A stretch of DNA of 64,000 bases from an uncultured virus (IMG/VR IMGVR_UViG_3300037088_000332) (taxonomy: Duplodnaviria > Heunggongvirae > Uroviricota > Caudoviricetes). The DNA lies in the IMG/VR virus record IMGVR_UViG_3300037088_000332; one strand, written 5' to 3'. The translations under genes and the position numbers were made by a program. The notes beneath the pieces are model-generated. The model searched no databases, was not told the DNA's origin, and was given only the letters and a program-made list of their open reading frames with translations. Below, in pieces: positions 18,841 through 56,366 of the stretch (its first letter is position 1; each line of letters opens with the position of its first letter).

Positions 18841-19664
18841 TATTCTCCTTCTGACTGCCGGTCTCTTCACCCGGCATGAGTCAGGGACGCCATAAAATCC
18901 TCCTTTTGTTCTAATAACCCCCACTTTGTTCCAGACTGAGATACGGGGGCACTACTTTGCACCGGCCACCGTCTTCTTGGCAGCCTTGCGGGCGGCGGAC
19001 TTGAGGGCATTGGTGGACTCCCTCTGAACTAGGGGAACGAAAGTCCGATTGCCAGTCGGCTTTCCCTCGGCGTTCTTTTCGTCCGCCATACTGCCGACGA
19101 GGACCAGTGCAACAGCACCGCCTCTCCACGGCTTGCGTCGGTAGACCTTGTCATCCATCTCAATTGTGTCCTGCGGCATCGGTACCGGCATCATATCCTC
19201 CACGCGATTGTTCTGTGATTTCTATTTCTAGTTTTCCAGGTAATTGAGTTGTTTATTCCACTCACGTAAACAGTCCGTCCAGTCGCTTTCGTCGGACTTG
19301 TCAAGGTTAAACAGCGTAATCTCTCCGTAGATGCTCTCTGATTCGCATGTTCCGACTATGCCAATGCGATGTGCCTCACATAGTGCCCGCAAATCTGCCA
19401 CGAATCTCTTACGTCGCTCCAGACTGACCATCTTAGCCTACCATGCGCCCGTTTCGGGACGACCCTTCGTCCAGGTTTTGGAGACGGGGTACTGGACCAC
19501 CCGTCCTCCGGGATAAACCTTGTACAACCATTCGGGGCGGTCAGCTATCTGTGTCCAGACGATGCGACCGAGGCTTTCCGCATACCCCTTGGCGTCGTTC
19601 AGAGAGGCTACGACCCTAACATTGTTCTTGTCGCAATCAAGCAGCATATTGTATTCCTTGGAAA

Positions 19665-19741
19665 TGGTACCCCCGGAGAGATTTGAACTCCCGACCTTAC
19701 GGGTAGAAACCGTCTGCTCTTGTCCGCTGAGCTACGGGGGC
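19665..19741 (-). tRNA. tRNA-Arg(TCT)
   Basis: GCCCCCG/CGGGGGT acceptor, loop TTTCTAC, TTCAAAT T-loop, CCA. Confidence 0.9.
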
Positions 19742-19914
19742 ATAATTTGATGGGGCTAAGACCTACGGTTAGCTGGCTCCCGGCTTGACATCGGAGAACT
19801 AAGCGCCATAGCCAGTAGTCAGCCTCTCCGATGTTCAACCCCAAACTTGGTGGGGGTGACCAGGCGACAGGTGCGGCAAAGTCATCTGGGCGTTTGAACC
19901 CTGCCCCCATATGT

Positions 19915-20004
19915 TGGTACCCCCGGCAGGACTCGAACCTGCGATGCCTTTCGGCATAGACAGTTCAGGAAACTGTTGCGATATCCATCTCCGCTCACGG
20001 GGGC
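19915..20004 (-). tRNA. tRNA-Arg(CCT) with atypical long variable arm
   Basis: ACAGT-TTCCTGA-ACTGT; variable hairpin ATGCC-GAAA-GGCAT; CCA. Confidence 0.85.
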
Positions 20005-20039
20005 AAAAATCTGCCGGGCGGTTGCCCGTCCGGACTTGG

Positions 20040-20588
20040 TTATTCCTTGTCAATCTCCACGTTCCAGTATAGATATGGGGCGTAGTCCGACCATTCTTCC
20101 CTTATCTTGTTGATGTGAAGCTTGAAATTGAAGCGAGGGTCAGTCGGCTTGGGGGTATAAGGCCTACTGATAAGCCTCATTCCCGCCTGTTCCGGTGTTT
20201 TGCCACCCTTCTCCTTGTTGCATTTCTGGCACGCAATCGCTAAGTTTGGCCAGTCGGACTTTCCCCCCTGGCACAAAGGGGTAACGTGGTCAATAGTGTA
20301 CTCGTGTGTCTTGGTTATCCGTCCGCAGTACTGGCACGAGGCGTTGTCCCGGACCAAGAGATTTCGCCGTGTGCATGGGACGGACTGCTTCTTGCGCCGA
20401 GTCCAGGCATTTTTTACGACGATTATTCTCGGCATCTTCATTTCAAAGTTGGGGCTGTGAAGCACACGACCAGCTTCGTCTTCCTTGACAATCTGGGCAC
20501 GTCCCTCCCACCAGAGCTTGACTGCGTTCTGGTAATCGCAAAACCCAACCGGTTTCCAATACATATCTAAAACTAAGCAATCCTGCAT
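20040..20588 (-). CDS. HNH endonuclease
   Basis: RRNLLVRDNASCQYCG..TIDHVTP..GG..NLAIACQKCNKEKG. Confidence 0.92.
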   Translation of the reverse strand: MQDCLVLDMYWKPVGFCDYQNAVKLWWEGRAQIVKEDEAGRVLHSPNFEMKMPRIIVVKNAWTRRKKQSVPCTRRNLLVRDNASCQYCGRITKTHEYTIDHVTPLCQGGKSDWPNLAIACQKCNKEKGGKTPEQAGMRLISRPYTPKPTDPRFNFKLHINKIREEWSDYAPYLYWNVEIDKE

Positions 20589-20699
20589 GTTAGTCTATGT
20601 TCCCCTTCCCAACCATCTGTGAGGAGCCCTAATAATGCTTCAAGAAAAACTAATTTTCTGATTGAGCCTTTGTGTATCCAGAAACGACCAATAATCAAA

Positions 20700-21097
20700 A
20701 ACCGCCCGCTGCCACGGTTGAGAGGACTCAACGACGCCTTCAACTTCAGAGCTACCTAGCTACCTAGCTGCTTCGCTGCATTGCTCGTGCCCAGAGAAGG
20801 CAATTAGGGCCAGCGTATAGCAGTCAACTTACGCCCGTAAGGACTAGGCAGTGGGGGGAACCTAAAATCTTAGAGCGGAGGTAGCTGGTCTTGGTCCCTG
20901 TCTAAAGGGCAGGTTCTTGGCCAGCCTCATTTCCCTACACCACACGGGTTGATACAGCAGGGTATGTTGATGGTGTCTCACCCCCGCCGCTGCGTTATCC
21001 TAACGCTCCCCCCCGCTCATCCCACTCCTGTGGCCACGCCCTTTAGGCATCGCCGTGTTGAAAGGATAAGCCCACGGCTTAGGCACAACAGGAGCAG
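20700..21097 (-). ncRNA. putative structured ncRNA region (2-3 domains)
   Basis: Downstream of the 21101 promoter motif; long-range stems GCTCCTGT/ACAGGAGT, GAGCGGGGG/CCTCCGCTC, CCCACTGCC/GGCAGCGGG; no credible ORF. Confidence 0.5.
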
Positions 21098-21230
21098 CAC
21101 TTATATAATACATCGGAAAACTGGGAAATTTGAACTTATTTTGAAGCGGTGAGTCCGAGTAGCCTTGTTGGCACCGCTCCGCTCCGCAAGGCTCAAAAGA
21201 TGGGAAGCGGTAAAAACCATCTACCCCGGA

Positions 21231-21449
21231 CTAAGGAGTGATACTTATAATCTCGGAGATTGGATGGAGAAGTAGGACCCCATCGTGCTTTATCGCAAGG
21301 TGCTTGAATCCGTCAAACTCCGTAAACTCGGCTTCACCTTCAGGAAGGCTGTCCCATATCTTCTTGTCCACCACTACGACTTTTGGGATGATGGGATGCC
21401 TTGAGACTTCTTCAAATGCACTTGAAAGGTCCAGCATTACGCTCTCCAC
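21231..21449 (-). CDS. hypothetical protein
   Basis: 72-aa ORF after tRNA-Trp. Confidence 0.55.
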   Translation of the reverse strand: MESVMLDLSSAFEEVSRHPIIPKVVVVDKKIWDSLPEGEAEFTEFDGFKHLAIKHDGVLLLHPISEIISITP

Positions 21450-21454
21450 TGATT

Positions 21455-21529
21455 TGGCAGGGGTGGAGAGATTCGAACTCCCACTGCAGCGTTTTGGAGA
21501 CGCGCCGACTGCCGTTATCTTACACCCCT
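21455..21529 (-). tRNA. tRNA-Trp(CCA)
   Basis: AGGGGTG/CACCCCT, GCGT-CTCCAAA-ACGC, GCCA end. Confidence 0.9.
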
Positions 21530-22044
21530 GAATTTTTGTTCCTATGCCTCCACGGTTTTGAGGTCGGTTGCTGTGTATGACAATGTGGACATAGAAACCT
21601 TAAATTTTCTGACCGGTCATCATACAGTAAACCATTGCGATGGTCTACATGTAGAACAAGTGGTTTTTTATTCCAGATGGGACCTTGACCACAAAGTTCA
21701 CATTTATACTCACGACCGATGTCTATTAGGCAACGCCTTAGTCTATGAGCCTGCTGCCGTGGTTCTGAGGGGTCTCTGAGCACCAATCGTTTATCTGGAG
21801 GAACCCTTTCCGTACCACCTTTATGATTCAGTCCTTTATTATACCCGCACCCCAAAAAATGAGAAGTGTCTATTTTGTGTCTTTTCAATAATCTTCCAAC
21901 ATAAGCATTACTGGTTTTACTTGCGCCAAGAAGTAAAGTCACATTGGTTATGGTTTTAGATACCTTGGCACATCTACTCAAATCTTCGTAAATATATCCC
22001 ATACTTATGGTTTGAGTAGTTGGTTTATAAACCACTGTCGCCAT
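21520..22044 (-). CDS. HNH homing endonuclease
   Basis: CELCG..WNKKPLVLHVDHRNG..DDRSENLRFLCPHCH. Confidence 0.9.
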   Translation of the reverse strand: MATVVYKPTTQTISMGYIYEDLSRCAKVSKTITNVTLLLGASKTSNAYVGRLLKRHKIDTSHFLGCGYNKGLNHKGGTERVPPDKRLVLRDPSEPRQQAHRLRRCLIDIGREYKCELCGQGPIWNKKPLVLHVDHRNGLLYDDRSENLRFLCPHCHTQQPTSKPWRHRNKNSGV

Positions 22045-22067
22045 CTTATGGTGATATTATAACTTTC

Positions 22068-22502
22068 GCTGGCGTCCTATCCGATAAACGAAGACCACGA
22101 CCGAGGGTACCATGGTTACCACGGTCACTGCTACCATTATGGCTACGCAGCACATGCGGTCTTGCGGGAGTCGAACCCACATTACCAGCCTGCCAGCGCT
22201 CTACCAACTGAGCTACGAGTCCCTTGTGGACCCGGAGGATTCGAACCCCATCTCTGGCTGTCTTAATGAGAGCGGAGAGCCTTGCTCAATCAACGCTCCA
22301 GATACGGACAGTGTCCTGAACCACTAGACGAATGCTCACAGCCAGCTACCATTAAGGCTATGCTGGCTCTTCGTGGCCACGAAGCACAGAGCATGCTGGA
22401 TTTGAACCAGCGTTCCCATCCTACTTAACGGCGGGGTCTTGGCTGATTAGATGACCGAGGAGCTAGGCTCCCCGATGGGGATTCGAACCCCAGTTTCCCG
22501 CC
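22068..22502 (-). ncRNA. RNA of four tandem circularly permuted tRNA-like modules
   Basis: Each module runs T arm -> acceptor hairpin -> D arm, closed by an anticodon-stem-like helix. Confidence 0.75.
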
Positions 22503-22507
22503 TGACT

Positions 22508-22586
22508 TGGTCCCAGCGAATGGCATCAAACCACCGACCTCCTTCCAGCCGAAGCGGAAGGTGCTCTTTAGCTGAGCTACGCCGGG
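22508..22586 (-). ncRNA. tRNA-like RNA with cUUCGg-capped anticodon arm (copy 1)
   Basis: CCCGGCG/CGCTGGG acceptor, ACCA end, CCTTCC-GC-TTCG-GC-T-GGAAGG. Confidence 0.8.
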
Positions 22587-22593
22587 ACAAACT

Positions 22594-22670
22594 TGGTTCC
22601 GAGGGCTGGGGTCGAACCAACAGTCTCACCGGTTCAGAGCCGGGGATTTTACCAGTTAAACTACCTCGGA
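22594..22670 (-). tRNA. tRNA-Gln(CTG)
   Basis: TCCGAGG/CCTCGGA, CCGG-CTCTGAA-CCGG, CCA. Confidence 0.88.
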
Positions 22671-22790
22671 ACAATCTTTGCAGAGGGATGATGCAACAGG
22701 TTTCTCAATGCCGTTGGCATCGGCTCCCGGAATTCACAACCTGCCTCTGCACCAGTCGTGAACCCAATCGGGACCTGAAGCTATCAATCT

Positions 22791-22869
22791 TGGTCCAGGC
22801 GAAAGGAATTGAACCCCCGACCTCCTCCCAGCCGAAGCGGAAGGTGCTCTTTCTCTGAGCTACGCCTGG
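22791..22869 (-). ncRNA. tRNA-like RNA with cUUCGg-capped anticodon arm (copy 2)
   Basis: CCAGGCG/CGCCTGG, ACCA, CCTTCC-GC-TTCG-GC-T-GGGAGG. Confidence 0.8.
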
Positions 22870-22876
22870 ACAAACT

Positions 22877-22955
22877 TGGAGCCGGTGAATGGCATCGAAC
22901 CATCGACCCCCCTCTACCCGAAGGAGAAGGTGCTCTCTAGCTGAGCTACACCGGC
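22877..22955 (-). ncRNA. tRNA-like RNA with cUUCGg-capped anticodon arm (copy 3)
   Basis: GCCGGTG/CACCGGC, TCCA, CCTTCT-CC-TTCG-GG-T-AGAGGG. Confidence 0.8.
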
Positions 22956-22962
22956 ACAAACT

Positions 22963-23036
22963 TGGTCTGGGCACTGAGAATCGAACTCAGGTCTTATGCT
23001 CCCGAAGCATAGGCTAGACCTTCCAGCTATGCCCAG
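22963..23036 (-). tRNA. tRNA-Pro(CGG)
   Basis: TATGC-TTCGGGA-GCATA; C1:G72, A73, CCA. Confidence 0.9.
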
Positions 23037-23042
23037 TAAAAA

Positions 23043-23116
23043 TGGTCGGGGTGCTCGGAATTGAACCGAGGTCTTATGCTCCCAAAGCATAGGCTTGACC
23101 GTCCAGCAACACCCCG
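23043..23116 (-). tRNA. tRNA-Pro(TGG)
   Basis: TATGC-TTTGGGA-GCATA; CCA. Confidence 0.9.
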
Positions 23117-23126
23117 TTCTAAATTT

Positions 23127-23205
23127 TGGTCAGGGCACCCGGATTCGGACCGGGGAAACCTCTTGCACCCCAAGCAAGCGCTCTACCAGGCTGAGCTATG
23201 CCCTG
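23127..23205 (-). tRNA. tRNA-Pro(GGG)
   Basis: CTTGC-TTGGGGT-GCAAG; CCA. Confidence 0.88.
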
Positions 23206-23508
23206 ACAAATACTTTGAAGGCTCATCGGTTAAAACCGATGAATTGCCATATGTTTGGCGGAGAAGCTACTCGTAGCTAGCGGGTACGAGTCAATTCATC
23301 TCCTTCAGCAATCAGCACCTCACTCGCAATAGCGGCGGGTGTTTCAGTGCTCACCTTCAAACTTGGCGGTAGGCAGAAGGAGGGTCACTCCTTGGAGCGG
23401 CACGGGGATTGTGCCCCGACGCCCCACACACGCAAACTGGTTAGCCTCGCCAGCCCAGTGTGCTCCTACCATAACCCAGACTTTCAAATGCTTGGATAGA
23501 GGAACACA

Positions 23509-24195
23509 ATGCAAACTATTGATACTACCGCAAGCATTAAGCTACTGAACAAAATCCATGCTGCCAAGTTGGGTGGAAAAGCCACAGGGGTAATTTCTCG
23601 GCGACTGGCGGTTGAAGCGAAAGAACGATATAACTCCAACCCCAACCACTGTATCACTTGTAACATCCCTATCTTGGCTTCTGATAATCCAAAAATCAAA
23701 CTACAGCAGACTCAGAGAAAAAAGCACTGCTCTCATTCTTGTGCCGCCAAACACCGAAAAGGCTTGACCGCTCCTCGATTGTGCCATCACTGCAATAAGA
23801 CCCCTGTGTTAAAGGATAGAATTGTGTGTGATGTGTGCAAAATTCTTCATACTAAGCCTGCGTGGTTTGGCATATTAGCCAACCTAAGCAAGGAGAGTGT
23901 TTTTTCTCGTTGCAAAAACTGGCAGTCGGCTAGAACCGTAATTCGTCAACACGCCGCTTATATCTACGCCTTATCCAACCAGCCGAAAATATGTAAAGTT
24001 TGCGGCTATTCAACCCACGTTGAGGTATGTCATATACAGGCTGTTAGCAGCTTTCTCCACTCTACTCTGATTAGTGAGATAAACAATGGCACTAATCTTG
24101 TTGCCCTTTGCCGTAACCACCATTGGGAGCTTGACCACGGCATTCTTAAATTGGTACCAGGAGTGGGGGTTGAACCCACGACTTCTTCGTTATGA
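23509..24195 (+). CDS. HNH endonuclease, antisense to the tRNA array
   Basis: CKVCGYSTHVEVCHI...NLVALCRNHHWELD; SD GAGGA. Confidence 0.88.
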   Translation: MQTIDTTASIKLLNKIHAAKLGGKATGVISRRLAVEAKERYNSNPNHCITCNIPILASDNPKIKLQQTQRKKHCSHSCAAKHRKGLTAPRLCHHCNKTPVLKDRIVCDVCKILHTKPAWFGILANLSKESVFSRCKNWQSARTVIRQHAAYIYALSNQPKICKVCGYSTHVEVCHIQAVSSFLHSTLISEINNGTNLVALCRNHHWELDHGILKLVPGVGVEPTTSSL

Positions 24196-24228
24196 GCGAA
24201 GCGTTCTCCCACGCTGAACTACCCTGGC
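24152..24228 (-). tRNA. tRNA-Met or Ile2 (CAT)
   Basis: CTTCG-CTCATAA-CGAAG; CCA. Confidence 0.88.
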
Positions 24229-24430
24229 ACAAAACTTGGGTACGTGGTGTTCGGGAGCCATGGTGGTTGCGCACGCTGCACCATGGGTATGTTGCCCGGC
24301 AATCACGCCGCCCGGACAATGGCCTTTATGGGCGCTCACGTACCTGCTTGAAGCATGAGGATGGGTTCGAACCACCGACCCCCCGGAATCCGGTTGCTCT
24401 TCCTAGCTGAGCTATTCAATGCTTCTAATG

Positions 24431-24509
24431 TTGCGGGGGTGGGAATCGGACCCACTTTGCTTTCGCTGGAGCTTATGAGACTCCCGAACGCCCGGTGTTC
24501 TTCCCCGCG
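24431..24509 (-). tRNA. initiator-like tRNA-Met(CAT), atypical
   Basis: C1xA72 mismatch (CGCGGGG/CCCCGCA), GGAGT-CTCATAA-GCTCC, GC-GAAA-GC variable hairpin, no encoded CCA. Confidence 0.7.
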
Positions 24510-24671
24510 TCAAACTTTCTTCTCTTTCGTCATCGCCGCAAGCTTGGTTGCTTGGGTCAGGGTAGCCCAGCGCATCTGCATCAATCGCTTTGTGCCATAC
24601 CATCCCCAATACTCCATCGGGATGATTTTTCCCCACACCCATTTATCAAGCCATACATAAATCTTGGACAT
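24510..24671 (-). CDS. small hypothetical protein (53 aa, MSKIYVWLDKWVWGKIIP...)
   Basis: Hand-translated; below the ORF-track cutoff. Confidence 0.5.
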   Translation of the reverse strand: MSKIYVWLDKWVWGKIIPMEYWGWYGTKRLMQMRWATLTQATKLAAMTKEKKV

Positions 24672-24942
24672 TAGCCAACTGTTCCTTCTCTAATACCCGA
24701 GTCTTGGCATTTTCATGGAACCTAACTCGGCTGCGAACAAACTTTTTAGCGCCTCGGATGTTCTTGGCCACACCGTGTTTGCCGTCCGTCTGGTCATGGG
24801 TACTGGCTCCTGCTGTTACCACCATATCAGCCAATACTGACCTAGCAGTAAAATGCTTGGTCCCTTTGCCGTATCCGTTGCGACCGGGTCCGACATACGC
24901 CGTCATTTGTTCTTTAAATCCTCGTTGATGATTCGTTTTCAT
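24646..24942 (-). CDS. hypothetical protein
   Basis: MKTNHQRGF... starts right after tRNA-Phe. Confidence 0.65.
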   Translation of the reverse strand: MKTNHQRGFKEQMTAYVGPGRNGYGKGTKHFTARSVLADMVVTAGASTHDQTDGKHGVAKNIRGAKKFVRSRVRFHENAKTRVLEKEQLANVQDLCMA

Positions 24943-25798
24943 AAAATTTGGTGGCCAGGACTGGATTTGAACCAGCAACGCCTACCTCTTCAGGGTAGCG
25001 CTCTACCATTGGAGCTACCTGACCACAATCTATAAAATTCACAACTGACAACACTTTTTTTGAAGTTCGTGCCATCGGTATCCATGACCCAAATAGCCCC
25101 TTACTGCTCATTTCTTTAAGAGTCGGCACAAGGTAAATCCATGCATCATATGGCATGTCCCGGCGAAGATAATTACATCGAATACAGGCTGGGTTGACGT
25201 TGTCTTTAGTGTGCCCTTTCGTGTTGTCAATGCGGTCGAGAGTCATCCTAAGCTCTTTTTCTCCACAATAAACACAGCCATTCAAAAAGGCCAATGTAAT
25301 GAATTCTTTATTCAAATCATTATTGTATCCACGTTTTTTATCAGATTGACGACAGTCTTTGAGTACAGTCATCGGCAATCTATTTGGGTCTTGTCTGTAT
25401 TTCCGATTGTAGGAGTTTATAAGCTCCCGATTAGCCTTTCCTTTTTTAAATCGCTTTCTGTATTCTCGGTTGCAAATGTGACAAATATGTCGTTTATATT
25501 GTCTTCCATTCACCCTACGTTTATGAAAGTGAACTTCTGGTTCTGTTTTTCCACAATCATTGCAGCGGTGTTTTCCAAACGATGGGTCATTTTTAATGTA
25601 CGCTGCATCCTTAGCCGCCTGCACATTAAGGCGATGACGAATTGAATTTTTTACATACCAGGCTTCTTGAAACTCCTTTTTACAGGGTTTACATAAAGAA
25701 GCAAATCCATCTTTCTTGGTTTTGTTTCTGTCAAAATTTCTAGATGTAAGCTCCAGTTCTTTTTTGCATTTGTGACATTGTTTAAACTTTGAATCCAT
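24914..25798 (-). CDS. HNH endonuclease with N-terminal Zn-ribbon repeats; 3' end runs through tRNA-Phe
   Basis: CVYCG..MTLDRIDNTKGHTKDNVNPACIRCN; multiple CxxC. Confidence 0.88.
   Translation of the reverse strand: MDSKFKQCHKCKKELELTSRNFDRNKTKKDGFASLCKPCKKEFQEAWYVKNSIRHRLNVQAAKDAAYIKNDPSFGKHRCNDCGKTEPEVHFHKRRVNGRQYKRHICHICNREYRKRFKKGKANRELINSYNRKYRQDPNRLPMTVLKDCRQSDKKRGYNNDLNKEFITLAFLNGCVYCGEKELRMTLDRIDNTKGHTKDNVNPACIRCNYLRRDMPYDAWIYLVPTLKEMSSKGLFGSWIPMARTSKKVLSVVNFIDCGQVAPMVERYPEEVGVAGSNPVLATKFYENESSTRI
24949..25024 (-). tRNA. tRNA-Phe(GAA)
   Basis: CTACC-CTGAAGA-GGTAG; CCA. Confidence 0.9.
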
Positions 25799-25865
25799 CT
25801 CTTAACCCCTTAACTAAATACTGATAATTAAGTTTTTAGTTAAGGGTTGATGCTTTTTGATATTT

Positions 25866-25944
25866 TGGTGGAATCGGCGGATTGGGTGCCCGCAACTTTC
25901 GGCTTAAGAGGCCGCTACGCTTAACCCTTTTGCGTCACGATTCC
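25866..25944 (-). tRNA. tRNA-Lys(CTT), aberrant T-loop
   Basis: GGAATCG/CGATTCC; CGGC-CTCTTAA-GCCG; T-loop lacks TTC. Confidence 0.75.
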
Positions 25945-25962
25945 AAACTTAGTTCTAAATTT

Positions 25963-26039
25963 TGGTACCCCCGATGGGAATTGAACCCACATTTATGTCC
26001 GCTTAAAAGGCGGCTGCATTGCCGGTCTGCCACGGGGGC
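25963..26039 (-). tRNA. tRNA-Lys(TTT)
   Basis: CCGC-CTTTTAA-GCGG; CCA. Confidence 0.88.
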
Positions 26040-26046
26040 TAAATTT

Positions 26047-26132
26047 TGGCTCCGAGGGAGGGAATCGAACCCCCACTAGGCTTGCGCCAGTCTGGTTAAC
26101 AGCCAGATGCCATACCTTTAGGCGACCTCGGA
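26047..26132 (-). tRNA. tRNA-Asn(GTT) with atypical long variable arm
   Basis: TCTGG-CTGTTAA-CCAGA; GGC-GCAA-GCC variable hairpin; G73, CCA. Confidence 0.87.
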
Positions 26133-26175
26133 ACAATCTTTAATGCTGCTTTAAATATGGCAGCAAGTTTAAATA

Positions 26176-26254
26176 TGGTACCCCCGGAGAGATTTGAACT
26201 CCCGCCCGTTCGCTTCGAAGGCGACCGCTCTGTTCCAGGCTGAGCTACAGGGGC
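26176..26254 (-). tRNA. tRNA-Arg(TCG)
   Basis: TCGC-CTTCGAA-GCGA; CCA. Confidence 0.88.
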
Positions 26255-26283
26255 ACATTTTTTACTGTCCACTCCTTCAAACT

Positions 26284-26358
26284 TGGTACCCCCAAGAGGA
26301 ATCGAACCCCTGTCTCATCGTTCGTAGCGATGTGCGTTCTCCACTACACTATGAGGGC
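26284..26358 (-). tRNA. tRNA-Arg(ACG)
   Basis: CATCG-CTACGAA-CGATG; CCA. Confidence 0.9.
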
Positions 26359-26439
26359 ACAATTTTCCGGCGTGGGTCGCCTATTCTAAGTCCGGGGATT
26401 GGATACCCACACCCTAGAGGTACAGACCCACGCCAAACT

Positions 26440-26514
26440 TGGTAGTCCCGCTCGGGGTCGAACCGAGATTTTAGCCTTCGGAGGGCTACGCCCTATCCAT
26501 TGGACGACGGAACC
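26440..26514 (-). tRNA. tRNA-Arg(CCG)
   Basis: TAGCC-CTCCGAA-GGCTA; CCA. Confidence 0.9.
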
Positions 26515-26549
26515 ATAAACTCGTGGGAGGAGTTTCCCTCCTCCCCGCA

Positions 26550-26618
26550 GGGAGCCTTCTTCCTCTTGAACTACAGCCTTGGTTTGGCTGGCGGGTCTCG
26601 ATTCCCGCATTGTCTCCC
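26550..26618 (-). ncRNA. single circularly permuted tRNA-like module
   Basis: GGGAG..GCGGG-AATCGAGA-CCCGC, CAGCC/GGCTG hairpin, TA-GTTCAAGAGGAAGAAG, CTCCC. Confidence 0.6.
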
Positions 26619-26727
26619 GTGACTTAGTGGCGGTGTCCAGCAGCGTAACATATCGGGTTTCACCGGGTCATGACTCCCGGCTACTTATTAGGTCCCTGCT
26701 CACTCGCTGCCAATCTTCCGCCCATAT

Positions 26728-26802
26728 TGGGGTGACCGGTGGGTGACAATCCCACGACCTCCTGGTTCACAGCCAGGCGCTCTATCGTTGAGCTACGGCC
26801 AC
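26728..26802 (-). tRNA. tRNA-His(GTG), aberrant T-loop
   Basis: CCTGG-CTGTGAA-CCAGG; C73 then CCA; T-loop ATTGTCA. Confidence 0.78.
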
Positions 26803-26882
26803 ACTCTGCGCAACGGTTATCTTCACGTCACGACTTAATCTTGAAATAATCCCAGTTCCTTGACCACCTGTCCCCTTAAACT

Positions 26883-26960
26883 TGGGCGCAAGGGACGGAT
26901 TTAAACCGTCGTCCATCCGGCACCACTGCCGGTGCTCTCTCTACCTGAGCTACCCTACAC
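26883..26960 (-). ncRNA. tRNA-His-like RNA with 4-nt anticodon loop
   Basis: G-1:C73 and CCA; CCGGCA-GTGG-TGCCGG. Confidence 0.65.
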
Positions 26961-27049
26961 ATAAAAATGAAAAGCCCAATCTTAAACTCAGGGCAGGGCT
27001 TATACCTTGATGCCCAATGGGTCTTATAACCTGCTGCCTGCCCTAATCT

Positions 27050-27124
27050 TGGCGGGAGAGGAGGGACTCGAACCCCCGTACTTGGTTTTGGAGACCAAGG
27101 TCCTAGCCGCTAGACGACTCGCCC
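27050..27124 (-). tRNA. tRNA-Trp(CCA)
   Basis: TTGGT-CTCCAAA-ACCAA; GCCA. Confidence 0.9.
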
Positions 27125-27132
27125 GAAAAACT

Positions 27133-27208
27133 TGGGGGGAGGGATGGGACTCGAACCCACAACTACCTGCTCCACAGGCAGGCGTTCTACCATTGAACTA
27201 CCCTTCCC
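27133..27208 (-). tRNA. tRNA-His(GTG)
   Basis: CCTGC-CTGTGGA-GCAGG; G-1:C73, CCA. Confidence 0.9.
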
Positions 27209-27210
27209 AT

Positions 27211-27254
27211 AAAAACGAAAACCCCCACCAGAACTTTCGCTCGATGGGGGTTTC
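27211..27254 (-). terminator. attenuator-type intrinsic terminator before tRNA array 1
   Basis: GAAACCCCCATC-GAGCGAAAGTTC-TGGTGGGGGTTTT-CGTTTTT, ending 2 nt before the first tRNA. Confidence 0.85.
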
Positions 27255-27276
27255 TTTCATTCTGTTTTGCTAGGTC

Positions 27277-27381
27277 TTACCTTGTACAACCCCTTGCTAA
27301 CAGAGCCCCACCGAACCTTGGGCGGCTAAAATTATGCCGCTTAGGCTGCCACTTCATCGGATTTGGTTTCCTGTTTCGCAT
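27277..27381 (-). CDS. putative leader peptide of array 1 (MRNRKPNPMKWQPKRHNFSRPRFGGALLARGCTR)
   Basis: Hand-translated; 22 of the first 23 codons are read by array-1 tRNAs; contains the antiterminator strand 27306-27315. Confidence 0.8.
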   Translation of the reverse strand: MRNRKPNPMKWQPKRHNFSRPRFGGALLARGCTR

Positions 27382-40682: not shown

Positions 40683-41621
40683 TCACTCCGTATCCCCCAC
40701 CAACTGCTTGTAGGTGATGCGGCGACCAACGGTCTGCTTCATAACTTCCGAAAACCTCTGCGCATCATTCCCGTGCCGTTCGTTGTACCGGAACACCTGC
40801 TCACCCAAATACCTGACCAAGTGGAACGGCTCAACGCTGACATAAGTTCCCTTGACGGTGCGCTTCAACAGGCTCCAGAAGTTCTCCAGCCCGTTTGTAT
40901 ACACCCGCCTCCGGACGTACTCGACGGCATGGTCAACAAATTGGTGGTCATATTGACCAGCTAATCCACCGTAAGAGGCTAATGCATCGGTATAAACGGA
41001 TGACCCGCCAGCGACTTGCGCCCCTACAAGGTTGTGCAAAGTCTTTTTCTTACGGTTTGGAATCACGGTGGCAATCACCTTTCCGCCCCGTTCCAAGCAT
41101 CCTAGCACGGGAATCTTATCTTTGCCGCCAGTCCCGGTAATGCTCTCAGCTCGCCTGCCTTCGTGCATGTTCTTGGAAAGTCCGCCGATGAAGGTCTCGT
41201 CAACCTCAACTTCGCCCGCAAGCTTCATGAAGGAGCCGGTCTGCATTGCCTTGCGGATACGGTGCAGCATGAACCAAGCCGACTTCTGCGTCACACCCAG
41301 GGCACGGTGAAGCTCGTAGGAACTAATCCCGTTCTTGCATACCGACAGGAGCCACACGGCGGGGAGCCATTTTTCCAAACTGATTGGACTGTCCTCGAAG
41401 ATGGTCCCGACCTTGAGCGAGAACTTGGGGCTCTTGTGGCCAGCATAGCATTTATAAACCCGTGCCTTCTCCAGATAGGCCACATGGTCAGAATCACACT
41501 TGGGACATTTGACCACTCCGTCCAGCCAACGGACCTCGACCATGAATTTGTGGCAGTTGGAGTAGTCGCCGAAGAACCTGACCGCTTCGAGCAAAGTATG
41601 GGGAGAATTTATCGTTTCCAT
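40683..41621 (-). mobile_element. IS1595-family (ISXO2-like) transposase
   Basis: Zn ribbon CPKC..YKC; GTIFEDS; VEVDETFIGG; VYTD; HAVEYV; TNGLENFWSLLKR; YLGEQVFRYN. Element ends not identified. Confidence 0.92.
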
Positions 41622-41746
41622 ACCTATAGTATACATCGGAAACTATGGTCTGTCAGGTACAAAATTTAGTTTCCCACTGGTATTTTCAGTGGGGTGAGCA
41701 TATAGTTTTTACGGTTTTAATTCACTGATAAAAGAGGACTTATACA

Positions 41747-42564: not shown

Positions 42565-43854
42565 TCATAGCACCTTCTCAAGGACGTAGTCTTCGGCGTT
42601 GCCGATTTCCGTCCACGGGATGTGACACTCGTCGAGAATCCTCTTCGTGGCTATTAACGACTCCGCCCAGCGCCCCAGCTTGTCGGCGTCCGGGCATGGG
42701 AACACGAACCGTTTGATGCCTGCCTGCATCATCTGCACGGCGCACCGTATGCAGGAGCAAAACGGCCACGTATAGAGGACACAGCCTTTCACCGGCCCGT
42801 TGGCGAAGAGCAGGGCGTTTATCTCGCAGTTATGCATTGGGAAACCTTCTACAATCATCGTGCGGGTGGAGGTTTGTACTTTAGCAATCTCTTGGGTACC
42901 GGCTGGTTCTACCGCCATGACACAACGTATGCAGTGTCGAGAAGAGTGCATTCTTCCAAACTTGTCAGGATTAAGCTTATTCAGTAGTCGTTTTGGTCTG
43001 ACAGTACCTAGAAAAGATAGACGTTCAGACAACCTGCCACGTATATGGGCAGCGAGACAGTCCTTTTTTCCTAATCCCCCTTGCATTGGGAATGAGTGTG
43101 TCCAAATGTGAAAATCTTGTGCTCGGTTTTTTAAGAGTCTCAGGACCTCCTCCAGAACCAATCCCGGTCTTTGTGCAAATTGTAAGGTGTGTCCGTGTTT
43201 AGAAATTGAGCCTTCCCCATCTAGCAAACCCGCTAAGTACCCAGCATCATAATCCGTAGCGGTAACCCAAGGTGTAAACAATTTATAAATTTTAGATGAG
43301 TGGTGGGCGAGGCCATCTTTTGTCAACCTAGCATTCTTGGGGGGTATGAGCAATTCGTCAGTTCTCCTCCACCGCCTCACATTGTTTGACCTAACCCCCA
43401 GTAACCAGCGGTGTTCTGCTGTACAGAGAATTTCGCTATTGTCATTAAAAATGACCCTAAAGACAGGCTCTTTGGCAAAGCTTATGTGTTCAACAATAGA
43501 CCTTCGGTATTTTCTACCACTTCGAGTTAGAGGGAATTCGTCAAACCCAACGAGGGCGTCCCCCACCTTGACTCCCCCCAATTCCACCCAACGTAAATCT
43601 GCGGTCAATGTTTTGTGAGATGGAACAGTGCAATGAACGATGTGGTCATACTTATAGGTCCGGTCGGTGTAAAGCTCGGGGTCATCTTTGGCCCCCTGCG
43701 GGAAGCCGTTGAATCCCACGCCCACCACCGACTTGTTCGGGCGCACGATGACCGCTCCCGTTTTAGTACTTGAATCTTTTGACCATGATGCTATGTGCGC
43801 CGAAAGTTCTAAGAAACGCCTATCCCACTTGTCGCTAATCTTGATTTTTTCCAT
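42565..43854 (-). CDS. dCMP deaminase containing an intein
   Basis: WSKDSSTKTGAVIV, GFNGFP, H|CE.NA, PFCSCIRC. Confidence 0.92.
   Translation of the reverse strand: MEKIKISDKWDRRFLELSAHIASWSKDSSTKTGAVIVRPNKSVVGVGFNGFPQGAKDDPELYTDRTYKYDHIVHCTVPSHKTLTADLRWVELGGVKVGDALVGFDEFPLTRSGRKYRRSIVEHISFAKEPVFRVIFNDNSEILCTAEHRWLLGVRSNNVRRWRRTDELLIPPKNARLTKDGLAHHSSKIYKLFTPWVTATDYDAGYLAGLLDGEGSISKHGHTLQFAQRPGLVLEEVLRLLKNRAQDFHIWTHSFPMQGGLGKKDCLAAHIRGRLSERLSFLGTVRPKRLLNKLNPDKFGRMHSSRHCIRCVMAVEPAGTQEIAKVQTSTRTMIVEGFPMHNCEINALLFANGPVKGCVLYTWPFCSCIRCAVQMMQAGIKRFVFPCPDADKLGRWAESLIATKRILDECHIPWTEIGNAEDYVLEKVL
42829..43632 (-). mobile_element. intein with LAGLIDADG endonuclease (268 aa)
   Basis: Starts CTVPSHKTLTADL, block B TAEHRW, YLAGLLDGEG, ends MHN before Cys. 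Confidence 0.9.
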
Positions 43855-54464: not shown

Positions 54465-56366
54465 ATGAACATAAGGGTTTCGCCTAAGACAGGAAGAAAG
54501 TACGGTTTCCAGCACTGGAAGGCAGAGGGGACCCACGGACCTTATCAGAACACCTATACTATGATGACGGTTGACCAGCCTCCACTAGAGGTCAGCCAAC
54601 TACAGTGGATGCCGCCTGTTTACGACCAAGGACAGGAAGGCTCTTGCACCGCTTTCGGGGCAAAGAACGTCAGGGAATTCCTTAGCATCAAGTATGTAAA
54701 AAAGCCGGTTTCGCTCAGCGCCCAGTTTCAGTACTATTGCGAGCGCCTGCTTAACGGAAACGTAGGCCAAGATGCCGGGTCCACAGTATCGACAGCAATG
54801 CTGTCAATGCGGATGTTCGGCATCTGCCCCGACGCTGATGAGTCGTACACAACCCCCTTTGTGACCAAGCCGTCTCAGAAGGATTTCGTGGATGCCGCCC
54901 GCTATAAGATTGGGAACATTTATACTATCAACACCTTGACGGACATGAAGAACGTCCTTAACGCCGGATGGGTCTTTGAACTTGGATTCCTCGTCTATGA
55001 ATCTTTTGAGTCCGATTCCGTGGCCACAACTGGCATCATGACCATGCCATCTTCCAAGGAGCAACTTCTCGGAGGTCATGCGGTCTGCCTTACCGCAGAT
55101 ACCAAGATATCCTTGCTGGACGGAACGGAGAGATCCATCCTAGACCTATGCAAGGGGTTTGAGGATAGGTCGTTCTGGGTATATAGCTGTGACGAAAACG
55201 GGGGTGTGGTTCCAGGGCTGGCACATCATCCACGAAAGACTGGAGAAAAAAAGCCGATAGTGAAGGTTACCCTGGATAATGGGGAGACAATCCGCTGCAC
55301 CCCGGATGAGTGGTTCATGCTGCGCGATGGGTCGTATCGGGAGGCATTCAACCTAGTAGCGGGAGACAGTCTGATGCCATTGTACCGCAAGATAGACGAG
55401 AAGCAGTTGCCTGGCTATGAGATGGTGTATAACCTTGCCACGAAGCGGTGGAGGCATACTCATCGTGCTTCTTACAGCGGAACTTACGGGAAATATGACA
55501 GAGGCGTTATACACCACGACGATTTCAATAAGCGCAACAATGTTCCCGATAACCTGATTCATATGACATGGGAACAGCATACTGCTTTGCACAGTCAAAA
55601 CATTGCCTTATTAGAAGATTATGCAAAAAGTGATGAGGGCAGAGAGCATAGCCGTCAACTTATGACCAAACTCTGGGGTGACCCAGATTGGCGGGAAGAG
55701 TCTATGCTACGGATTAAAGAGAACGGTAAGAAGGTATCCTATCAGTTGGCGCTAGAGGGACGTTGCGGATTTCAAGCTATGGATAAGGATGTGATAGCTG
55801 CAATCGGGCACATAACTGGTCCAAAGAATATCCTAAAGACTCAAACCCCTGAGGCGCGGACAAAGCAAATAGCTACCCTAAAATTTCGCTATGCAACCGA
55901 CTCCGAATTTTCCAAGGTTGTACTGGAAAAAGCATTGAGGGCATCACAGGTTGCGGCTCTTCTTGCCCCGACGCAGGCGCAGATAGAGGCTCGTCAAGAG
56001 AATGTGAAAGTCGCCAGGGCTACCAAGGCTAAAAAGTTCGCTATGGCTGCCGTAAACAACCATAAGGTTGTCTCTGTGGAGGATGCTGGATATGAGGATG
56101 TCTATGATTTAACCGTAGATAGATACCACAACTTTGCTCTTACTTCTGGGATATTTGTCCACAATTGTGTCTGGGGGTACAACGACACCTTTATGTTCCC
56201 CGGTCTCCCGAACGGTGCGCTGGCCATCCGCAATAGTTGGGGTACTTGGGGCAACAACGGTAACTTCTTCATGCCCTACGGTTATCTGAACGGAATTGAC
56301 CCTAGTGGCAATGGACCGTTTGTGAGCGATGCCCATTTGTGCCATTTGGGACCGGTTTGGTCGTGA
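54465..56366 (+). CDS. papain-like (C1A) cysteine peptidase containing an intein
   Basis: DQGQEGSCTAF, LSAQFQYY, GGHAV|CVWGY, IRNSWG.WG.NG.F; SD GAGGAGG. Confidence 0.92.
   Translation: MNIRVSPKTGRKYGFQHWKAEGTHGPYQNTYTMMTVDQPPLEVSQLQWMPPVYDQGQEGSCTAFGAKNVREFLSIKYVKKPVSLSAQFQYYCERLLNGNVGQDAGSTVSTAMLSMRMFGICPDADESYTTPFVTKPSQKDFVDAARYKIGNIYTINTLTDMKNVLNAGWVFELGFLVYESFESDSVATTGIMTMPSSKEQLLGGHAVCLTADTKISLLDGTERSILDLCKGFEDRSFWVYSCDENGGVVPGLAHHPRKTGEKKPIVKVTLDNGETIRCTPDEWFMLRDGSYREAFNLVAGDSLMPLYRKIDEKQLPGYEMVYNLATKRWRHTHRASYSGTYGKYDRGVIHHDDFNKRNNVPDNLIHMTWEQHTALHSQNIALLEDYAKSDEGREHSRQLMTKLWGDPDWREESMLRIKENGKKVSYQLALEGRCGFQAMDKDVIAAIGHITGPKNILKTQTPEARTKQIATLKFRYATDSEFSKVVLEKALRASQVAALLAPTQAQIEARQENVKVARATKAKKFAMAAVNNHKVVSVEDAGYEDVYDLTVDRYHNFALTSGIFVHNCVWGYNDTFMFPGLPNGALAIRNSWGTWGNNGNFFMPYGYLNGIDPSGNGPFVSDAHLCHLGPVWS
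55086..56165 (+). mobile_element. intein with HNH endonuclease (360 aa)
   Basis: CLTADTKISLLDG, CTPDEWFM, HHDDFNKRNNVPDNL, VYDLTV..HNFAL..GIFVHN before Cys. Confidence 0.92.

Follow-up and report, generated by a model that had tools for sequence, protein, structure and literature searches.

Anticodon-sealed, CCA-ended tRNA look-alikes in the tRNA array of an uncultured large phage

The 64,000-nt stretch analysed here (IMG/VR record IMGVR_UViG_3300037088_000332, hereafter the window) comes from a large, uncultured phage and carries rIIA/rIIB, a DNA ligase, many HNH and homing endonucleases, and inteins. Its DNA was present in peat metagenome runs, and no near relative of the window or of the region under study was found among cultured phages. 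ARAGORN called 31 transfer RNA (tRNA) genes in the window, every one on the minus strand. Three genes in this array, designated c1, c2 and c3, have the outline of a CCA-ended tRNA and carry a UUCG-capped hairpin at the place of the anticodon loop. The locus raises the question of whether these genes encode tRNAs that read codons or tRNA-shaped RNAs that cannot, and of what the latter would do for a phage. The fold, the covariation and the relatives of c1-c3 indicate that they very probably specify non-decoding RNAs under selection. The explanation that we favour as a whole, with moderate confidence, is that these tRNA-shaped RNAs would be unable to read codons and would act as decoys through their acceptor/CCA end.

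Architecture of the three elements and their anticodon arm

The elements and their anticodon arms lie at the following positions of the window. Arm values are minimum free energy (MFE) and ensemble frequency, and R1 is the family model described below.

22508..22586, minus strand: c1, a 79-nt anticodon-sealed tRNA look-alike; C1:G72, A73, CCA, U56 in the T loop (ARAGORN Arg(tcg); R1 63.3 bits)
22791..22869, minus strand: c2, a 79-nt anticodon-sealed tRNA look-alike; C1:G72, A73, CCA, D loop AGAGAAA (ARAGORN Arg(tcg); Rfam tRNA 44.1 bits)
22877..22955, minus strand: c3, a 79-nt anticodon-sealed tRNA look-alike; G1:C72, U73, CCA, D loop AGCUAGA (ARAGORN Pro(cgg); Rfam tRNA 39.4 bits)
22541..22561, minus strand: anticodon arm of c1, 21 nt, loop at 22550-22553 (MFE -10.3 kcal/mol, frequency 0.886)
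22824..22844, minus strand: anticodon arm of c2, 21 nt, same design, loop at 22833-22836 (MFE -9.8 kcal/mol, frequency 0.884)
22910..22930, minus strand: anticodon arm of c3, 21 nt, same design, loop at 22919-22922, with C-G for G-C at the outer pair of the 2-bp helix (MFE -8.7 kcal/mol, frequency 0.869)

All three elements follow a common plan consisting of a 7-bp acceptor stem, a discriminator and encoded CCA, a 4-bp D stem, a 5-nt variable loop and a T arm of 5 bp and 7 nt. An initial annotation, made from the letters alone, had described a 7-bp acceptor, CCA, a T arm and a D loop lacking GG in each copy, and all of these were present on the minus strand. The D loops are 7 nt long (AGCUAAA in c1, AGAGAAA in c2, AGCUAGA in c3) and lack the G18 G19 doublet of elongator tRNAs; a single elbow pair may survive, formed by G with C56 in c3 and by A with U56 in c1. 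Rfam tRNA (RF00005; 29-bit criterion) matched c2 and c3 at the scores given above, and c1 was not listed at E ≤ 1. The tRNA-like character of c1-c3 is not due to chance, as seen from the ARAGORN calls for all three, the Rfam scores of c2 and c3, and family-model E-values of 1e-15 to 7e-19.

The anticodon arm measures 21 nt, compared with 17 nt in a normal tRNA. Judged on MFE and ensemble frequency, it takes the form that had been proposed from the letters, namely 6 bp, a bulged U and 2 bp closing a UUCG loop: this fold was in the MFE structure of all three whole molecules, and the isolated arms adopted it at an ensemble frequency of 0.87-0.89. When the three copies were aligned on a cloverleaf with the sealed arm, 72/72 stem cells were paired. 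Both-side changes occurred in six pairs: the acceptor stem accounts for three, the T stem for one and the arm for two, including one in the 2-bp helix that closes UUCG. This last pair (32:39, the outer pair of the helix) is G-C in c1 and c2 and C-G in c3, which bears out the co-variation first noticed by eye. The acceptor stems, likewise described as different in sequence yet still paired, differ on both sides at 1:72, 3:70 and 6:67 and on one side at 4:69, with 21/21 acceptor cells paired. Only 1/500 shuffles reached the values of the three-copy alignment, and slid controls paired 44-58% of cells.

The initial annotation had allowed for another reading, a UCG anticodon on an extended 7-bp stem. 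On that account c1-c3 would be real decoders, tRNA-Arg(UCG) or, for c3, tRNA-Pro(CGG), whose loop is opened by a synthetase, by modification or by the ribosome. ARAGORN reads them as Arg(tcg), Arg(tcg) and Pro(cgg), and the 7-nt register supplies C32, U33, UCG and G37. In this register, however, the seventh stem pair is G.U in c1, G.U in c2 and a C/U mismatch in c3, whereas the helix under the tetraloop covaries and the sealed fold predominates in the ensemble. The 5-bp stem and 7-nt loop (Y32, U33, R37) of elongator tRNAs are absent from all three. Canonical tRNAs have a fixed 5-bp anticodon stem, and from general tRNA geometry two extra stem pairs would shift the anticodon away from the acceptor end. 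Canonical genes for Arg(UCG), Arg(ACG) and Arg(CCG) and three Pro tRNAs, Pro(CGG) among them, are already present in the window (ARAGORN), and c3 has U73. The identity letters of tRNA-Arg are an A at the D-loop end, C35, G36, and A or G at position 73. Read in the 7-nt register, c1 and c2 have these letters, which fall within the tetraloop or abut it, and c3 departs from them with U73; the UUCG in c1-c3 plausibly descends from a UCG anticodon loop. With the evidence from relatives given below, we consider decoding very improbable.

A short-D-loop phage family on a tRNA-Arg-like body

Three paralogs are a small sample for covariation, and relatives were therefore sought. The search pattern, taken from the window copies, was a D arm with a 7-nt loop AGNNARA between GCUC and GAGC, and this signature was found in 119 viral loci. 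A filter on the acceptor stem (at least 6/7 pairs) and T stem (at least 4/5) kept 80/101 distinct matches and dropped 21; with the three window copies, which have the same D arm, the family comprised 83 members. CCA is encoded in 67/83, and the D loop reads AGNGAAA in 80/83, only two of these letters being fixed by the search pattern. T-loop position 56 is C in 55, U in 20, A in 7 and G in 1, a spread that fits a relaxation of the usual G19:C56 pair. The discriminator is A in 55, G in 14, U in 12 and C in 2, and G3:U70 occurs in 4/83.

The body is constant across the family, and the anticodon arm varies in sequence and in length (12-33 nt); the segment that starts at position 26 and takes in the arm and the whole variable loop spans 18-39 nt, compared with 23 nt in a normal tRNA. 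A canonical anticodon loop (5-bp stem, Y32-U33...R37) was found in 3/83 only. Thirty-six arms are sealed with an unusual length, and 17 have a 17-nt arm lacking U33. By a fold criterion of a loop of at most 5 nt on at least 6 bp, 50/83 arms were sealed, compared with 7.8 ± 2.2 (maximum 14) in 100 shuffles, and GNRA or UNCG made up 18/33 of the family tetraloops. In the 80 members other than the window copies, 97.1% of cells pair, a value that the selection on acceptor and T-stem pairs inflates for those stems; the five outer arm pairs, which were unused in the selection, are paired in 89.2% of cells and all five covary. In the relatives, then, the part of the initial annotation that held was the closure of the arm, which is conserved; the UUCG sequence itself is not.

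R1, a covariance model built from the 80 members with the window copies excluded, ranked c2 (74.9 bits), c1 and c3 (60.7 bits) first, second and fourth of 28 matches in the window. Only tRNA-Arg(UCU), at 61.7 bits, scored among them. In the related locus L155 it gave 72.9 bits to a canonical tRNA-Arg(UCG) that has the family D loop. The body of the family is thus tRNA-Arg-like, since canonical tRNA-Arg genes score high with R1. On these models c1-c3 are members of a phage family whose common body is tRNA-Arg-like with a short D loop; variation is concentrated in the arm, which in most members is sealed or departs in some other way from the canonical form. An Arg-like body is also what real decoders would have, as is a best cultured-phage match to tRNA-Arg(CCU), at 75% identity. 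The searches with c2 against cultured phages gave no match at E ≤ 0.001, and at E ≤ 10 canonical tRNAs only. When a typical family member was searched against phage records, the sole match was 25 nt in the record of an uncultured 595-kb phage (LR756511.1), and R1 confirmed it as a sealed member with a GAAA loop (79.2 bits). ARAGORN left 20 of the 80 members uncalled and gave many others two- or four-letter anticodons. A looser scan that allowed a normal D loop returned 52 well-formed matches, 17 of which were further sealed tRNA look-alikes, 3/17 with G3:U70.

Further evidence on the arm comes from a related 237-kb viral contig (G002). There, Pro(GGG), Pro(UGG) and Pro(CGG) are followed by an element of 74 nt, then by a spacer of 108 nt, a Pro(CGG) whose D loop has 7 nt, and Gln. 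The element (L389:6061-6134) is the syntenic ortholog of c3, with the same D arm, nearly the same T arm and U73, and its acceptor stem differs from that of c3 by compensatory changes. For its anticodon arm the element has an unrelated hairpin of 16 nt (6 bp and a loop of 4 nt), which presents no anticodon-like loop and is unassignable by ARAGORN; this argues further against decoding. The sealed state is thus conserved at the orthologous place although the arm has been replaced. Together with the sealed covarying fold and the scarcity of canonical loops in the family, this ortholog lends in silico support to the non-decoding part of the initial annotation's proposal that these are non-decoding tRNA analogues; the nuclease resistance and the roles of decoy, ribosome-rescue adaptor or aminoacyl donor that it also put forward are conjectural.

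The same data bear on a second alternative, that c1-c3 are foldable leftovers: duplicated tRNA genes past decoding, kept for clean processing in a polycistronic array, with an arm free to drift to any stable hairpin. Variation of arm length and sequence on a constant body is what this would produce. An identical 7-nt spacer precedes each of c1, c2 and c3, which suggests recent tandem duplication, and L155, as described below, does without the elements. The contigs from four peat runs that cover c1-c3 were identical to the window, and therefore no population variation could be read. A contig of another, more abundant relative matched c3 over its 5' 52 nt, differing at 5 of 64 bases, before passing into a different T arm. 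Against leftovers, unpaired D-loop letters are kept in family members from many contigs, stable GNRA/UNCG loops are enriched, the c3 ortholog is still sealed, and a subgroup of eight sequences keeps a 25-26-nt GNAA arm with covarying pairs. We regard this alternative as quite unlikely.

That subgroup of eight distinct members (L275, L292, L313, L326, L350, L352, L359) has an arm with a 5-bp covarying base, an A-rich internal loop, a short helix and the GNAA cap, and the arm itself looks conserved; the acceptor stem is identical in 6/8. Next to family loci L268-L385, tRNA calls with an unusual A34 anticodon were frequent (Ile(aat), 11 times; Phe(aaa); Ser(act); His(atg)), and these arrays may hold further irregular tRNA look-alikes outside the family as defined. 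At L046, L061 and L273, sealed or odd tRNA look-alikes adjoin tRNAs with a CUA (amber-reading) anticodon, which hints that some carriers are stop-codon-recoded phages.

Patterns based on the exact arm were less productive. They gave 0 matches in viral contigs and 2 in metagenome contigs, both in coding sequence without a tRNA, and 16/17 matches in prokaryote genome contigs were not tRNA-like. The remaining one, a tRNA-like element from an alphaproteobacterial metagenome-assembled genome (L174, ~1470-1580), was left uncalled by ARAGORN; two UUCG-capped hairpins substitute for its D arm and its anticodon arm. The matches listed from a scan with a 3'-half pattern included ordinary tRNA-Pro(CGG) genes.

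Possible roles and the nearest known systems

Given their place in a phage tRNA array, c1-c3 are presumably transcribed together with their neighbours and excised in the same way. The parts touched by processing enzymes, CCA-end enzymes, synthetases and EF-Tu are retained, namely the acceptor, discriminator, CCA, T arm, D stem and variable-loop core, and a closed, predicted very stable hairpin stands in place of the anticodon loop. The acceptor/T-arm/CCA end would be the working end, because the parts read by enzymes are conserved and the acceptor stems and discriminators are diverse. With its anticodon sealed, such an RNA would be inert in translation and could accumulate without miscoding. 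It might then compete for proteins that recognise the tRNA body or the 3' end, for example host toxins that modify or trim CCA ends. That serving as a decoy for such proteins during infection is the actual job of c1-c3 is a tentative suggestion, possible rather than probable.

EF-Tu affinity was predicted from the three T-stem pairs using Table 2 of PMC3239215, which was measured with E. coli and Thermus EF-Tu. On this table the predicted binding was weaker in the family, with a mean of +1.16 kcal/mol (82/83 scorable), than in the canonical tRNAs of the window (+0.17 kcal/mol; 25/26) or of G002 (+0.20 kcal/mol; 22/24), and c1 (+1.5 kcal/mol) and c2 (+1.3 kcal/mol) exceeded all 25 canonical window tRNAs. 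The weak predicted binding is a weak hint only: by the same table c3 is average (+0.1), six canonical window tRNAs reach +1.0, and the family members are related rather than independent, so that the p-value exaggerates the shift.

These last points weigh against the decoy explanation, and several others stand beside them. No RNA run was found among the sequencing runs that contain the window stretch. The whole-molecule MFE has separate D and T arms, and hence a cloverleaf, in c2 only; in c1 and c3 the D sequences pair with T sequences. Such D/T mispairing is frequent in MFE structures of unmodified tRNA sequences, and the cloverleaf of c1 and c3 rests on the 72/72 paired cells and not on the MFE. 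The survival in c1 and c2 of the tRNA-Arg(UCG) loop letters, the A at the D-loop end and A73 means that a synthetase or the ribosome might pry the loop open. Because a sealed arm would offer no binding site to enzymes that read the anticodon loop, the decoy could work only against body- or end-directed enzymes. L155, whose RIIA is 52% identical, has the same array order and no counterpart element at this place; its lineage can thus dispense with such elements. The D-arm pattern used to gather the family was drawn from the window copies, and the filter acted on stems whose pairing was then counted. Finally, a Pfam scan of 74 open reading frames of the window found no partner gene (aminoacyl-tRNA transferase or tRNA repair).

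Other gene associations were no more regular. G002 encodes a CCA-adding-type nucleotidyltransferase although its tRNAs carry an encoded CCA, PTH2 genes lie near two unrelated sealed elements and in contig G001, and Ro60 (TROVE) and RtcB were not found in two related, incomplete contigs. There is no consistent association with PTH2, the CCA-adding enzyme, Ro60 or RtcB.

A third alternative shares the sealed arm and differs in what the acceptor end does. Here c1-c3 would be aminoacyl carriers outside the ribosome, charged by an anticodon-tolerant synthetase and passing the amino acid to a transferase in the manner of the staphylococcal cell-wall tRNA-Gly, and the sealed loop and weak EF-Tu binding would exclude them from translation. 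PMC3239215 and Mukai et al. (PMC5389517) give this some footing, the former raising weak EF-Tu binding for tRNAs in non-translational roles and the latter describing irregular soil tRNAs that are charged but unused in translation. CCA is encoded in most of the family, the discriminators are spread much as in real tRNAs, and the identity positions 1:72 and 73 differ among c1-c3; other sealed phage look-alikes have the alanine mark G3:U70 with A73, and tRNA-Ala(UGC) lies two genes away from one of them. However, c1-c3 lack G3:U70, a long variable arm and G-1, the features that mark anticodon-independent charging, and no aminoacyl-tRNA-dependent transferase was found among the 74 window open reading frames scanned. 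The arginyl- and prolyl-tRNA synthetases also depend strongly on anticodon bases. Carriage of amino acids by c1-c3 therefore seems unlikely.

Each of the nearest described systems shares one trait with c1-c3 and fails on others. Phage tRNAs, especially tRNA-Arg (RF00005), share the cloverleaf, the encoded CCA and the array position, and their D stem, variable loop and T arm are close to those of c1-c3; unlike canonical phage tRNAs, c1-c3 have a sealed 21-nt arm, a 7-nt D loop without GG, and low Rfam scores. The tRNA-like domain of transfer-messenger RNA (tmRNA) is an acceptor/T-arm module with CCA and without an anticodon that is charged and enters the ribosome. It has the alanine mark G3:U70 and a message part, neither of which is present in c1-c3, and ARAGORN called no tmRNA in the window. 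The engineered tRNA scaffold of Ponchon and Dardel, in which the anticodon arm is swapped for another hairpin, reportedly yields a stable, correctly processed RNA; the scaffold is man-made, whereas c1-c3 are natural and their insert is a capped helix only.

The staphylococcal non-proteinogenic tRNA-Gly and other cell-wall tRNAs have a normal anticodon loop and are charged by glycyl-tRNA synthetase through that loop. They differ from c1-c3 in retaining the loop, and would resemble them in being kept off EF-Tu. PMC3239215 discusses tRNAs kept off EF-Tu by weak T stems for use by non-ribosomal enzymes. Mukai et al. (PMC5389517) describe irregular tRNAs and allo-tRNAs from Acidobacteria of soil and peat; some of these tRNAs were charged in vitro yet are unused in translation. 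They resemble c1-c3 as odd tRNA genes in polycistrons from peat and forest soil; they keep an anticodon loop and split the acceptor and T stems 8/4 or 9/3, whereas c1-c3 have the normal 7/5 split and have lost the anticodon loop. YrlA (RF02553; Chen et al., PMC4201824) is an anticodon-less bacterial and phage tRNA mimic recognised by tRNA enzymes. It has a Ro60-binding stem and normally no free CCA acceptor end, unlike the free CCA ends of c1-c3, and an Rfam search of the window gave no RF02553 match on c1-c3. Weak YrlA-like matches were seen near the elements (22175-22270, minus strand, 24.2 bits) and, more strongly, at the like place in G002 (L389:6639-6737, 41.9 bits), both below the 69-bit cut-off. 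A full-text literature search of partial coverage found no description of anticodon-sealed, CCA-ended phage tRNA look-alikes.

The surrounding array and the meaning of the family

The neighbours of c1-c3 and a further look-alike in the same array are as follows.

22963..23205, minus strand: three canonical tRNA-Pro genes (GGG, UGG, CGG), directly upstream of c3 (ARAGORN; order shared with G002)
22671..22790, minus strand: 120-nt spacer between c2 and tRNA-Gln, possibly a structured RNA (MFE -42.7 kcal/mol, z-score -2.11)
22594..22670, minus strand: tRNA-Gln(CUG), between c2 and c1 (ARAGORN)
26883..26959, minus strand: fourth CCA-ended tRNA look-alike with a closed 16-nt arm (6 bp and a 4-nt loop) and C73 (Rfam tRNA 31.4 bits, R1 51.8 bits)

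The initial annotation had placed all three elements beside the Pro tRNAs. This was correct for c3 and then c2, which directly follow tRNA-Pro(GGG), (UGG) and (CGG), and not for c1, which comes after tRNA-Gln(CUG). Its description of Pro-type elements fits in a similar, partial way: the C1:G72/A73 of c1 and c2 matches the three window Pro tRNAs, and the body scores best against phage tRNA-Arg bodies. The 3:70 pairs of the copies are C-G, A-U and C-G. The spacer at the like place in G002, 108 nt long, had a z-score of only -0.39. The fourth look-alike was labelled '???' by ARAGORN, with a two-letter anticodon.

Further irregular pieces were observed on the minus strand of the tRNA region. Between c1 and the next open reading frame (22100-22507) lies a run of odd tRNA-derived pieces with several T-arm-like hairpins and a weak tRNA match at 22157-22222. 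Three tRNA-like stretches were missed by default ARAGORN: 24349-24422 (R1 39.9 bits), 24433-24508 (a weak tRNA-Sec-like match) and 25869-25944 (Rfam tRNA 41 bits). An Rfam match to CyVA-1 RNA was found at 21154-21230 (49.7 bits, gathering score 41.4 bits). Across 19600-27300, many spacers 3' of an encoded CCA start with AGUUU or AGAUU, which may be a shared array processing signal. Elsewhere in the window, a papain-type protease gene is split by an intein with HNH (54465-56366, plus strand), a LAGLIDADG domain lies in a dCMP deaminase gene (42565-43854, minus strand) and an IS1595-type transposase is encoded at 40683-41636 (minus strand).

The usual view of phage tRNA genes is that they help with codon usage or replace tRNAs cut by host defences, and a conserved family of non-decoding tRNA bodies, if true, would be a third phage use of the tRNA shape. 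Judged by its sequences, the family of sealed look-alikes is widespread among phages. Gene finders label its members as tRNAs with odd or undetermined anticodons, and phage tRNA inventories are therefore inflated and distorted. If the RNAs are decoys or carriers, they would suggest that there are enzymes, in the host or the phage, whose recognition is confined to the acceptor half of a tRNA, and they would be a natural precedent for the engineered tRNA scaffold. More broadly, it is conceivable, though we hold it with considerable doubt, that large phages of soil and other habitats carry a class of translation-inert, CCA-ended, tRNA-Arg-derived bodies with a sealed or exchanged arm as counter-defence, each of which would mimic a different tRNA acceptor end and absorb or block host enzymes that attack the tRNA end or body, or would carry amino acids for a phage enzyme. 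If such a class exists, its bodies would form a natural 'tRNA scaffold' on which the arm could be exchanged freely as a module.

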